The notes beneath the pieces were generated by a model, which worked only from the letters and a program-made list of their open reading frames with translations, was not told where the DNA came from and ran no database searches. The position numbers were made by a program, and so were the translations under genes. A DNA stretch of 64,000 nt. Origin: Eledone cirrhosa. Its lineage: Eukaryota. Shown piece after piece: positions 8,547 through 48,756 of this stretch (position 1 is its first letter; every line of letters begins with the position of its first letter). The stretch spans positions 13,578,001 to 13,642,000 of the forward strand of contig OZ024747.1 in NCBI GenBank assembly GCA_964016885.1, in the 5' to 3' direction.

Positions 8547-8710
8547 ATAACGAAGGAAATGTGGTAAGGAACCAGATGGACCATAATGCACCAAAGTACT
8601 CAATACTTAGGGTAGTAGAGTGGGTAATAGGAACGAATAAGACCCCGACGGCTGAGCTCAAGCCGTCGAAACGGCTTGAGTTCAGCCGTCGGGGTCCTAC
8701 TCGTTCCTAT
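8547..8710 (+). mobile_element. Short hairpin-terminated element (family H) in (TA)n
   Basis: ~80-bp unique arm (ggaaatgtggtaaggaaccag...cttagggtagtagagtggg) plus a terminal palindrome ataggaacga...gccg-tcgaaa-cggc...tcgttcctat. Confidence 0.8.
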
Positions 8711-10446
8711 ATATATATGTATATATATATTTGCATCCCCGAAATATATATAATGAAATAAATAGCGATGATATATATATATATATATATTTAATACAAT
8801 AACAGAGATAGCTTAAAGCTAAACTCTGACTGGTAACCATCTCACTCAACAAACATTAGGTTATATGTTAATATAAACCCAATTTAAGTGTTTGGGGTGC
8901 TAACTATATGTATTTTGTGGAAAGCCAGTTGTATTATTTTATGAGATATAATTAAAGTTAAAATATATCTCTCTTTCCAAACAATTGTTTCATTATAAGT
9001 TTTCCACAAATTAGGAGATTGTTTCCAGTTTATGTAGAAGCCTAACATATATTCATGTAAGAATATATTTAGGTGGGCGCTTATAAATCATCAGTATATA
9101 TATATATATATATATATATATATATATATATTATACATTGGGAGGATCATGCTGCCAGTAAAAACACACACCTGTTGATTTTCACTTCAATTTATTATAA
9201 ATTTCCATTTGGTTAGTTTAACAAACAGGTAGTTGTTTATTTGTTTATTATCAAAGCTCTTTTGTCACACATTCCGTGACTTCCTCAGGGACTAATTTGT
9301 TATTTTGTGTCTCTCCTTTGTTCTGTCCTACACCATCTTGTTTTTGTGAGTGCAAAACAAATACAAAAACGAAGTATATATATATCATCCCACATTTCCC
9401 TATATCTTCCCTTTTAAAGGGTTCTTTTGACTTCAATCTGTCTCTATTCCTTTATACAGCTGTCATCCTTCATATGCATTACATATCCATACCATTGCAG
9501 TCTCCACTCCTGCACACTGCACCTGATACCTCTAATGCTCAGTTTATATATATATATTCATACAAACATGTACACATACACTCATATATATATATATGTT
9601 TGTATATAATGCCATCTTAAATATAAACATGAACAAGGTGATATATATATATATATATATACATATATATATATGTGTGTGTGTATATATATATATATAT
9701 ATCAGTAGGATTTTATTGACATCTTCAGAAGAAATTCTTCAAGAACGTGATCTTGTTTGTTTGTTTTAAGAATATATAAACTCTTATCGATTTCTACTAG
9801 TTATTATTCCATATTGTATCAAAATGAAAACATGTCTGTGTATGTATGTACATATACATAGAAGCATAAGTCTATAGCTCTGCTTATATATGTGTGTGTG
9901 TATATATATATATATATATATATATATACACATACACACATATATATATACATATATATATATACATATATATATATACATATATATATACATATATATA
10001 TATATATATATATACATATATATATACATATATATATATACATATATATATATATATATACATATATTTATACACATATATATATATATATATATATATA
10101 TATATATATATATATATATATATATATATATATACACACACATATATATATATATATATATAAACACATATATACACACACATATATATACACACACATA
10201 TATATATATATATATATATATATATATATATATATACACACACATATATATACACACATATATTTATATATACATATATATATATATATGTGTGTGTGTG
10301 TGTGTGTATTTATATATTTCAACACGCAATTTCAATTCAGAATATTGTGAGACAAATACAATAAACATATATATATAGGAACGAGTATATATATATATAT
10401 ATATATATATATATATATATATATATATATATATATATATATATAT

Positions 10447-10659
10447 ATAGGAACGAGTAGAACCCCAACGGCTGAGCTCAAGCCGTTTCGACGGCTAATT
10501 CTGGACTAAAAATGTTTAGTCCAGAATTAGCCGTTCGAAACGGCTTGAGCTCAGCCATCGGAGTCCTACTCGTTCCTATTACCCACTCTACTACCCTAAG
10601 TATTGAGTACTTTGGTGCGTTATGGTCCATCTGGTTCCTTACTACATTTCCTTCGTTAT
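10447..10659 (-). mobile_element. Family H element with ~130-bp terminal palindrome
   Basis: Same unique arm as 8547-8710; palindrome centre ctggacta-aaaatgtt-tagtccag. Confidence 0.8.
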
Positions 10660-10691
10660 ATATATATATATATATATATATATATATAAAG

Positions 10692-12130
10692 AATGATTAA
10701 CAAAACAGATAGACATCATAAAAAGGTAATTTATTCCAAGTGTTTACAAATGTTTCTTTAGTAGTTACACAGCCTAGTCATGCTATATGCAAATTAGTAG
10801 TTATTAATTTGCAGATACTCAATTTTCAAATGCTGTTCGTACTACCGAATTGTCAGAATGAATGGTTGAATCATGGTTTCTTTATATTTCTTAAAGGGAG
10901 TAATTGGGGAAGATAGAGTAGAAAAGGAAGAGAGAAAGACAGGGAGAGGGAGAGATAGATATGTAGGGGTAGGAGAAATGGGAGAGAGAGGTTTGAAGAA
11001 TACAGATAGCTTGATCTAAATGCTATGACAGGGGTTCAACAAGTGGTTTTATTAATCTCTTTGAGATTATACTGCTTACTCTCAAAGAGATAACTTAGGC
11101 ATTGTGTTGATAGTAACAAGTTTGGAATTATGTATTGCCACAGAGAGCAGGTTAATAGATGTGGAGAAGGAGGGAGATAGACAGAGAGTGAGAGAGAGAG
11201 AGAAAGAAAGAGAAAGGGAGAGAGCGGGAGGGGACAGAAAAAAGTTAAGAGAAGGGGAAGGAAAGGCGATATACACTGAGTTGATAGTTGTATTTTGCTG
11301 ACCGTACTTAAGTATTTAAGTATTTAAGTATTTGCTGACCGTACTTAAAGTACATTTATTACAATAAGTAAGGTATTGGTTAGTAGTGGGGTGGGGGGGG
11401 GGGTATATATTTAGGAAGTAATTAATGAGTTAGATTAGTTAGCGAGAAAGTGGTGTAATAGTCTTGGGTTCAAATTATGCTAATTACTCTTATAGTGAGA
11501 AAATTTAGCCTTCAGTTTGTGGTTGCAGTATAATGATCGTTCGATTCTGTCATATAGTAGATTGTTTTTAGATTTCAAGATATAAAAAAGTTCATGGCTG
11601 CATAATCTGCAGTATTTTAATCCACTCCGATATGCACTAGCGCTGGATAATTTATTCCATTTTAGGGTGAACTGCTGGTTGTGTTCGCGGAGTTGCCAGG
11701 TCTTATTAGCGAGTGTAGTTACATAATGGTTTTCAGGATGTTTAATCGAAAATCGATGACGATACCAGTGTGATTTATAGGAGGTAGTAGTAGACCCGAC
11801 GTAATACCATTTCTGGTCGTTTGATTCGACAATGCATTGATAAACAATGTTGGACTCCAGGCATTTATTCTTCAATGGGCATCTCTTGGGTAGGTGGCAA
11901 TTACAGTTTTTGTTATGAGTAACAACTGTACCATGGATAGGTTGGGATAACAGTACAGGTGGGTTGCATAATACTCGTTTCCCATTTGGTGGTTGGGAAG
12001 TTGATATTACGTTATGCCCATCTGTGTCTAAAATATTTTGTTTTGTAGGCTCAGTAACTACTAAAGAAACATTTGTAAGCACTTGGAATAAATTACCTTT
12101 TTATGATGTCTATCTGTTTTGTTAATCATT
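10692..12130 (-). mobile_element. 5'-truncated Penelope-like retroelement with inverted ~85-bp termini
   Basis: GIY-YIG coding remnant, long 3' UTR, degenerate hammerhead at ~10741-10860. 10692-10776 is the reverse complement of 12047-12130. Confidence 0.85.
11480..11915 (-). pseudogene. GIY-YIG endonuclease domain of a Penelope-like element (probably Naiad-type)
   Basis: NCNC..CPL...CL...IVYQ..V.......YYVGST....K..W..H......TTLA...W.L......LKW......Y......C.LC..E...IL.....LL..R.E....C.H motif pattern; no RT retained. Confidence 0.85.
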
Positions 12131-12324
12131 TATTATCTCCGGGATATAAAAAAATCGAAAACCAAGTTTCTTTAACTGTTCTTTTGTAACTTGAGTAACC
12201 CCTCACCGTACGTCGACTCTATCTAGTGTAGTAATTAACCATTACTGCATTCAGAATAATCCTAAGCATTTCTTGCATAACCTAATATATATATATATAT
12301 ATATATATATATATATATATATAT

Positions 12325-12765
12325 GGTACTTTGGCGGTACTCAGTAATAGAGAAGACCCGCCTTACCTAAATACATAGTAAAACCTACTACAGTCAGTAG
12401 GCATCTCTAACAAAATACACCCCCGTCCCACCACCCCCACCCCATCCACACCGCCCCTTTCAATGTAAAGTTATGTTGGTGCCACAACATCCAGGCCGAA
12501 ACAAATGAGATCGTGTAGGTGTCATGTCAAAAAAACACACAGTTCACGCTGTAATGTGGCCGTGTAGGCAACACGGTAAAAACCTCCCAGCCCCACACTG
12601 TAAATGTGGTTGGTGTTAGGAAGGGCATCCAGCTGTAGAAAACCCGCCAGATAGTCCTATGCGAGCAAGATAACCACTCTTGCCTCAAGTGGGAAAACCC
12701 TCCGTCCAAACCCATGCAAGCATGGAACACGGACGTTAAACGATGATGATGATGATGATGATGAT
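12325..12765 (+). mobile_element. 3' end and UTR of RTE subfamily 2
   Basis: Near-identical to the reverse complement of 33662-34095; ends ggacgttaaacga(tga)n. Confidence 0.85.
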
Positions 12766-47375: not shown

Positions 47376-47661
47376 TAATCACACCATAAAGCCCAATTTA
47401 CAGCCAGCCTGTCACTTTACAGTAACCAAATCAATAACATAGATGACACTGGTGAATCAGAGAAGCTTATATACATTGTGAGGCCAATCAATGGTGAGGG
47501 ATAGCATAGGATATATATATATATATGTGTGTGTGTGTGTGTGTGTGTGTGTGTGTGTGTGTGTGTGTGTGTGTGTGTGTGTGTGTGTGTGTGTGTGTGT
47601 GTGTGTGTGTGTGTGAATGTGTGTGTGAGTGTGTGTGTGTGTGTATATATATGCACACATA

Positions 47662-47844
47662 TAATTGTTTCTACTTTAGGCACAAGGCCAGCAATTACCC
47701 AGTGCATTACTGGTACTTTATTTTATCGACCCCGTAAGGATGAAAGGCAAAGTCAACCTCGGCGGGATTTGAACTCAGATTGTAAAGGGACGTAACTATG
47801 CTGGAAAGCATGACGTCCGACCCTCTACCGATACTGCCAATCCG
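47662..47844 (-). mobile_element. SINE family A
   Basis: Family consensus; flanked by gcacacatat(at)aat duplication. Confidence 0.88.
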
Positions 47845-48089
47845 CACACATATAATAATGTATAATAATGTGTACAGTGCTCAGGTGCACTACAACTCAT
47901 CAAAAATAAATATATATATATATATATACACATATATATATATATACATATAAATATGTATATAAATATGTATATATACATATAAATATGTATATAAATA
48001 TATATATATATATATATATATATATATATATATATATATATATATATATATATATATATATATATATATATAAATATATATATATATAT

Positions 48090-48251
48090 ATAACAAAGGA
48101 ATTGTGGTAAGGAACCAGATGGACCATAACGCACCAGAGTATTCAACTTAGGGTAGTAGGGTGGGTAACAGGAAAATGTCTAACCCCGATGGCAGAGCTC
48201 AAGCCGTCCAAACGGCTTGAACTCTGCCGTCGGGGTTAAACATTTTCCTAT
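48090..48251 (+). mobile_element. Family H element (short palindrome)
   Basis: Unique arm plus aggaaaatgtctaaccccga...tcggggttaaacattttcct. Confidence 0.8.
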
Positions 48252-48548
48252 ATATATATATATATATATATATATATATATATATATATATATATATATA
48301 TACATATAAATATGTATATAAATATATATATGTAGGTAGAACGGTAAAAAGTTCCCAGTTCCACACTGTAAATGTGGTTGGTGTTAGGAAGGGCATCCAG
48401 CCATAGAAAACCTGCCAGATAGTCCTATATGAGCGAGACACGGTCACCCGACCAGCTTTGCCTCAAGTGGGACAACTCCCGTCTAACCCATGCTAGTGTG
48501 GAAAGTGGATGTTAAATGAGGATGATGATGATATATATATATATATGT

Positions 48549-48756
48549 ATAGGAAAAAGTATGACCCCGACGGCAGAGCTCAAGTCGTTTCGACGGCTAT
48601 TTCTGGACTATTTCTCAGTCCAGAAATAGCCGTCGAAACGGCTTGAGCTCTGCCGTCGGGGTCATACTTTTTCCTATTTTCCACTCTACTACCCTAAGTA
48701 TTGAGTACTCTGGTGCGTTATGGTTCATCTGGTTCCTTACCACAATTCTTTTGTTA
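48549..48756 (-). mobile_element. Family H element (long palindrome)
   Basis: Centre gacggctatttctggact-atttctc-agtccagaaatagccgtc. Confidence 0.82.

Follow-up and report, generated by a model that had tools for sequence, protein, structure and literature searches.

We analyzed a 64,000-nucleotide (nt) window of the Eledone cirrhosa genome (assembly GCA_964016885.1, contig OZ024747.1, positions 13,578,001 to 13,642,000, forward strand) and, within it, family H, a short palindromic repeat whose arms hold the 3' half of a hammerhead ribozyme. H copies are probably (at roughly 70%, by our own estimate) the shortest head-to-head insertions of an intact Hydra-clade Penelope-like element (PLE), each likely made afresh by two-strand priming, run-off and end joining. 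Family H has an intact parent element, two fixed 3' ends 80 nt apart with one at each end of an insertion, a shared 5' stop and junctions that vary between copies. A first-pass annotation of the window had listed six copies and three stubs and read them as a non-autonomous PLE derivative, formed by snap-back at hammerhead stem II and now amplifying as a unit. All six copies were found, each flanked by (TA)n runs and with refined coordinates, and the stubs proved genuine, two being single tail-less arms and one a decayed tail (Table 1).

Parent element

The parent was reached via two facing arms 3.3 kb apart in the surveyed genome of 3.0 Gb. Of the matches to a protein search 130 were scored, and many of these lie in open frames spanning about 784 codons; homologues at E <= 1e-20 numbered 2,049 among 7,996 candidates. 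At nine loci, tandem 3.53-kb units carry a 717-amino-acid (aa) open reading frame (ORF) with a reverse transcriptase (RT) followed by a GIY-YIG endonuclease (EN). Family H corresponds to the end of the pseudo-long terminal repeat (pseudo-LTR), which contains the entire hammerhead, and long copies continue unbroken into this ORF. The suspected PLE origin, with H as the 3' half of the element's hammerhead, was thereby borne out. In the tandems the tail, i.e., the 80 nt carried by one arm only, continues into the 5' untranslated region and its end is therefore an internal site of the RNA. Among the nine loci, all six insertions with both ends in view had one tailed and one tail-less end. With a single RT and GIY-YIG ORF, tandem or partial-tandem pseudo-LTRs, an inverted 5'-truncated copy and a one-sided tail, the parent has the features of an endonuclease-bearing (EN+) PLE.

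Landmarks of the parent protein are RWR (37), DKT (117), YRDD (348), CNCPDRSIC (572), VIY...YIG (591-608), CNLC (670) and CKH (698), with one cysteine between VIY and YIG, no CCHH motif and a C-terminal EN. This is the motif set described for the Hydra clade, namely an RWK-like motif, DKT, a CxCx5C linker, CxxC and CxH without CCHH, along with insertion into (TA)n (PMC8557442). Judged by these motifs, the (TA)n target and a likeness to Hydra-1_Obim in the published alignment, assessed by eye, the parent is a Hydra-clade PLE. Neptune/Nematis and Naiad were considered as its clade and rejected, since the protein is without the CX2-5CxxC finger and CCHH and its EN is C-terminal, not N-terminal. 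A Pfam scan of the 717-aa protein recognised no family; homologues matched PF26215 and, in one case, PF01541.

The alternative given in the first-pass annotation, a Helentron or miniature inverted-repeat transposable element (MITE), is not needed. Small size, a terminal palindrome and microsatellite flanks would suit such an origin or that of another DNA-transposon derivative, but we give it next to no weight: the sequence is continuous with the RT and GIY-YIG ORF, the termini are those of the RT element, no fixed centre exists and the tail is found at one end only.

Two further sets of RT-element fragments lie in the window. A C-terminal GIY-YIG fragment of another PLE family (11483-12100, minus strand) has 34% identity over 137 aa to the H parent and a similar cysteine linker. 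The ORFs beside the 32293 copy were rejected as the parent, being fragments of an unrelated RT element with a PHD finger (32514-33437, plus strand; 34055-35383, minus strand; RT match PF00078), which we take to be RTE-like.

Arms, tails and junctions

Family H comprises at least 40,175 arms genome-wide, the number of exact matches to a 27-mer of the arm (reversed control: 0). As annotated earlier, every arm shows the order GTC-GAAA-CGGC-loop-GCCG-TC-GGGG, the unique arm measures 80 nt, and subfamily variants are mirrored on both arms, with a mean of 1.6 of 35 nt differing within 47 paired elements compared with 4.9 between elements. The differences between arms of one element argue against a sequencing fold-back artefact. 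The palindrome centre had been described as looking like a stem II hairpin; it is not conserved as such and varies from copy to copy. A DNA search gave 3,681 candidates, 40 of them scored; centres differ among the 30 closest copies and some contain templated or foreign sequence, and one-arm variants common to these 30 best matches were disregarded as selection by the query.

In a sample taken by order of position and comprising 99 of the first 100 arms listed, all 47 paired elements had a tail on exactly one arm, and arm lengths within elements were unequal in both directions. At seven further loci (L085, L086, L149, L163, L165, L173 and L177), a tail-less arm is paired with a tailed arm that ends within the tail or helix I, and the tail-less arm holds sequence absent from its partner. 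The latter also applies to several young loci (L242, L249, L253, L263 and L312). In the 5' direction, tail-less arms thus often outreach their tailed partner, which a single complementary DNA (cDNA) folding back cannot yield and which speaks against the proposed snap-back at stem II. Snap-back or self-priming has been suggested before (PMC3846280). In case of family H, we consider it improbable that one cDNA folds back and copies itself or that longer palindromes collapse at the centre after insertion. The arms are mirrored, their lengths weakly correlated and some centres contain templated fold-back insertions, all of which would fit, but the end of the second arm is invariably the same site, 80 nt further in, and shortness is already seen in copies that match intact elements at 100%.

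The young subfamily has 4,996 tailed arms, and we examined the first 90 loci by position. All but two tailed arms (88/90) end in TA-repeat sequence, the other two being internal. The 88 terminal arms comprise 69 short arms with a short partner, 12 short arms without a partner as determined by script, and 7 long arms; one of the 12 partnerless arms adjoins a long inverted piece. Short arms are paired with short arms more than independence predicts, with at most one long partner among 81 short terminal arms (P about 0.02). In the first 30 loci, young short arms have 98.5-100% identity to the intact unit, 59 of the 69 junctions among young short pairs are distinct, and every subfamily in the window has counterparts with long arms. 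These results contradict a self-amplifying non-autonomous unit. Were the H copies themselves transcribed and retrotransposed with the junction remade every time, the excess of short over long arms (about 4-11 to 1), the recurrence of identical junctions 2-3 times in 69 and the retention of both start sites in short copies would be accounted for. We nonetheless regard this as quite improbable given the identity of young short arms to the intact element and the long-arm counterparts; further, the junctions that recur connect the commonest stops in the simplest way, either blunt or with an overlap of 1 nt.

Some loci show other joins. H arms are fused at the 5' end to other repeats at L031, L044, L047 and L033 (around 1500). 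At L033 the joined repeat includes a further Penelope-like ORF, oppositely oriented. Such joins look as though a different RNA had been copied from one end of the target. At L095, L099, L009 and L016, A or T runs at the junction exceed the template, which suggests untemplated addition or slippage at the cDNA end.

A common stop inside helix II

Both arms halt at a common RNA position even though they start 80 nt apart. When 152 short young arms were sorted by the distance of their end upstream of GAAA, 28 ended at 18 nt, 22 at 17, 40 at 12-14 and 13 at 19-22, with none at 23-25, so that the mode is 18 and the ceiling 22 nt. Genome-wide, 8,602 young arms reach 10 nt and 1,792 reach 26 nt; 1,856 contain the whole 5' half, a count based on a looser pattern than the other two. 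The older subfamily also peaks at 18 nt (7/44 arms). A stop at the apical loop of helix II was considered and rejected, as older arms peak at 13-21 nt and their loop lies at about 30-35 nt. This is a further point against snap-back at stem II.

An A lies at -18 within T(T/C)AGT and is retained by 43 of 45 long arms from the different subfamilies; in the young type, a second A lies at -22 within TCATTT. These two sites would presumably fit the initiator consensus. Among arms with an untemplated junction, a G adjoined 11 of 16 arms ending at 18 compared with 9 of 30 ending elsewhere (Fisher P 0.015), and four of the nine non-18 arms with an extra G end at -13, a possible second start. An extra G is a mark of cap copying in L1 insertions (PMC11702581), and the Penelope promoter has been located in the pseudo-LTR (PMC2377424). 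The arm ends suggest that the RNA likely has its capped start inside helix II, at the A located 18 nt before GAAA and also at those located 22 and 13 nt before it.

Alternatively, with the same parent and the same two-ended priming, RNA structure or a bound protein could halt copying of a full-length RNA at helix II, much like a template boundary for a telomerase-related RT. In favour of this, the stop in either subfamily falls just past where helix II is conserved, and it is common to both start sites. We judge such a block to be unlikely, because the stop does not follow the apical loop, arms past 26 nt nearly all carry on and short arms pair with short arms. A block would also leave the extra G and the initiator-like A without explanation.

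Several points weigh against two-strand priming with run-off at an RNA start. We infer the start position from arm ends only, and the initiator consensus is one that we assumed. Many arms end short of 18 (peaks at 12-14 and 17), and trimming or further starts are needed. The cap signal is slight, and it was less marked in a second set, that of 2,831 elements in which each arm measures at least 18 nt. Here, the base after -18, tallied by eye for the first 100 listed arm ends, was A in 71, C (the cap type) in 13, G in 11, T in 3 and none in 2, although five elements of this set have a single C:G pair as centre compared with one with A:T. Two of the nine parent loci fuse a short arm to a long arm. 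Lastly, the two arms of a short element tend weakly towards similar lengths (rho 0.32, P 0.008), which symmetric processing would also produce.

Hammerhead ribozyme in long arms

Genome-wide, 3,421 arms contain the hammerhead 5' half. The first-pass annotation noted the absence of CTGANGA; the missing core half is present in longer copies, as TTGANAA. Of 30 long arms examined, 22 had a TTGANAA core, 4 CTGANAA, 2 GTGAGAA, 2 TTGANGA and none CTGANGA, with all four bases found at core position 7 among the 22 TTGANAA cores. The canonical CUGANGA hammerhead is observed in the Hydra clade without defining it (PMC8557442). Covariation to U3-A8 has been reported for PLE hammerheads (PMC4209133), and the non-canonical core thus marks a variant. 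Taking the absence of a CTGANGA-bearing relative as refutation, as had been proposed, would consequently have produced a false negative. Within 6-34 nt of GAAA, CTGANGA had 33 genome matches compared with roughly 220 expected from a crude composition estimate. The 30 of these examined were junctions or chance matches and were rejected as the parent.

The hammerhead topology was the lowest-energy fold in two of five copies folded. In 16 chosen rows, 94.7% of 320 cells were paired, and G10.1-C11.1 was present in 16 of 16. At three helix II pairs, the young and old subfamilies differ in both partners (5/16 rows), which reflects one subfamily split, i.e., one event class rather than many events. 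With three helices round the core, GAAA, an NUH triplet, a free position 7 and G10.1-C11.1, the long arms are, by primary sequence and fold, type I hammerheads. An Rfam scan of the window yielded no hammerhead among the 150 of 239 matches listed.

If ribozyme-cut RNA were copied, both arms would end at the GUC site. This was the case in 3 of the 69 young elements (L294, L295 and L340), in which both arms start exactly after the GUC-type triplet; taking the two arm types singly, P is about 0.016 and 0.004. Such elements hint at ribozyme cutting in vivo. In two of the three an extra C:G lies beside a G run and slippage or a structural stop is possible, which counts against our interpretation.

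A C3-A8 mismatch subfamily (L120, L130, L131 and L146, core at 1501) has still yielded many insertions and represents a natural test of how important cleavage is. A C3-A8 hammerhead is expected to cut poorly, so that cutting is perhaps not essential, and this subfamily suggests that insertion may proceed without it.

Proposed mechanism

Based on these results, we propose that the endonuclease cuts both strands of the (TA)n target and that two RT active sites start cDNA at internal sites 80 nt apart. For the Poseidon element PAc, extension of both target strands and two internal starts that define the tail have been shown in vitro (PMC11167929). A transcript starting in the upstream pseudo-LTR of a tandem would contain two sets of these start signals. 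Long insertions with the full ribozyme would result from priming at the 3' set. Priming at the 5' set would yield cDNAs of about 57 and 137 nt, which run off the template at its capped end within helix II. Trimming and end joining of both cDNAs would follow. H arms would hold half a hammerhead because the first half of the core lies upstream of the RNA start, and a minor class ending at the GUC site may derive from ribozyme-cut RNA. If two cDNAs run off in this way, H copies would be dead products and not a breeding lineage.

A more far-reaching version combines these elements, and we hold it tentatively, at somewhat less than even odds. The RNA start would split the hammerhead into an uncuttable half at the 5' end and a whole U3-A8 ribozyme at the 3' end. 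The RT pair would pick the 5' start signals in about 80-90% of events, leaving tens of thousands of dead hairpins, and the GUC-ended minor class would record Penelope cleavage in vivo.

Relation to known systems

Earlier publications already describe inverted copies truncated at the 5' end, tails, insertion into (TA)n and ribozyme pairs on opposite strands (PMC8557442, PMC3846280, PMC4209133). Hydra-1_Obim and the Hydra clade are described with the same single RT and GIY-YIG ORF, motif set, (TA)n target, inverted 5'-truncated copy and one-sided tail. The hammerhead listed for Hydra-1_Obim is canonical (ctgaagag), whereas the H parent has a U3-A8 core and a long helix II and is a separate family. 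The H parent also has a 3' untranslated region of about 1.1 kb, a 3.53-kb unit compared with less than 3 kb and a tail of 80 nt compared with 30-40 nt in the Hydra clade (PMC8557442).

The in vitro target-primed reverse transcription of PAc shares two-strand extension, two internal starts and an AT-rich target with the mechanism proposed here. PAc belongs to another clade, and the account as available to us does not describe short head-to-head products, cDNA joining or run-off at an RNA start; it states that ribozyme cleavage was not required for insertion and that no RNA reads ending at the ribozyme site were found (PMC11167929). Minimal PLE hammerheads share U3-A8, a short helix I, G10.1-C11.1 and a near-palindromic helix III with the H arms. 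Unlike these, H long arms have a helix II of about 55 nt with an internal loop, and the opposite-strand motif pairs described there lie 100-700 bp apart and are both whole, whereas most H arms hold the 3' half only (PMC4209133). Non-LTR retrozymes are also short, non-coding, PLE-related, hammerhead-derived and present in many copies. They are described as head-to-tail tandems with a whole ribozyme per unit and an independent lineage, whereas short H copies are head-to-head, hold half a ribozyme and show no lineage of their own (10.64898/2026.07.22.740005). In L1 twin priming, two cDNAs from both target ends are likewise end-joined, with an extra G at the copied cap. The L1 cDNAs span different, adjacent parts of the RNA, whereas those of H would span the same part, which results in a palindrome (PMC11702581). 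Among the papers listed by a literature search, thin on subscription journals, none dealt with Penelope cDNA that runs off its template at the transcription start, or with transcription beginning within the ribozyme.

The origin of PLE inverted repeats and one-sided tails and the role of the hammerhead are considered open in the sections of the literature consulted (PMC8557442, PMC11167929). A family with intact young ORFs and thousands of near-identical insertions makes the two-cDNA model directly testable, as the two start sites, the ribozyme cut site and a likely start of the RNA can all be read from where insertions end. If the model is true, this genome is a large natural read-out of how Penelope inverted repeats and tails form. 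Annotators should note that such hairpins can pass for MITEs, for microRNA precursors or for new non-autonomous families, and that the parent escapes a search for CTGANGA.

Copies in the window and neighbouring repeats

The family H features of the window are listed in Table 1. The hammerhead half of the 10449 copy has point changes, and the fold and pair counts given above come from long-arm copies. Within the (TA)n run upstream of the 10449 element, 11 nt (10378-10388) repeat the sequence of its tail-less end.

Table 1. Family H insertions and parts in the window, with extents given as nt upstream of GAAA and identities to individual genomic loci.
Feature	Position	Strand	Remarks
Short head-to-head insertion	8549..8710	-	tailed arm on minus strand; tail-less arm on plus strand, 8661-8710; arms extend ~7 nt; 96.6-98% identity to long-arm copies L120 and L137
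Short head-to-head insertion	10449..10657	+	tail-less inverted arm ~10449-10510; tailed arm ~10515-10657; arms extend 21-22 nt
Hammerhead 3' half in 10449 copy	10537..10563	+	GAAA, helix III, cleavage triplet position, helix I 3' strand
80-nt tail of 10449 copy	10577..10657	+	span between both inferred reverse-transcription start sites
Solo tail-less arm, older subfamily	24865..24947	+	81% to L224
Solo tail-less arm	26665..26727	+	extends 17 nt; 92% to L135
Decayed, interrupted tail remnant	about 28880..29012	+	third stub
Short head-to-head insertion, older subfamily	30346..30522	-	small deletion in tail; long-arm counterparts exist
Short head-to-head insertion, older subfamily	32293..32502	+	unequal arms, 28 and 18 nt
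Short head-to-head insertion	48093..48249	-	arms ~7 nt
Short head-to-head insertion	48551..48755	+	arms 19 and 18 nt; 95-98% to L135

A second palindrome at 30635-31008 has perfect 181-bp arms, each with a canonical CTGATGA...GAAA, and adjoins TA runs; it is likely a head-to-head insertion of another Penelope-like family. Hammerhead-like CTGA(T/A)GA...GAAA motifs of other repeat families occur near TA runs on the minus strand at 31286, 32053, 33529 and 8161. Further, a near-perfect 90-nt hairpin (49006-49095) had sub-threshold matches to many microRNA models, and a similar sequence is joined to an H arm at L039. The window also contains a 5S rRNA copy (7774-7892, minus strand, 100 bits) and tandem arrays of a 24-bp unit repeated about 206 times (15591-20421), a 36-bp unit repeated 37 times (21873-23207) and a 109-bp unit repeated three times (6270-6599).

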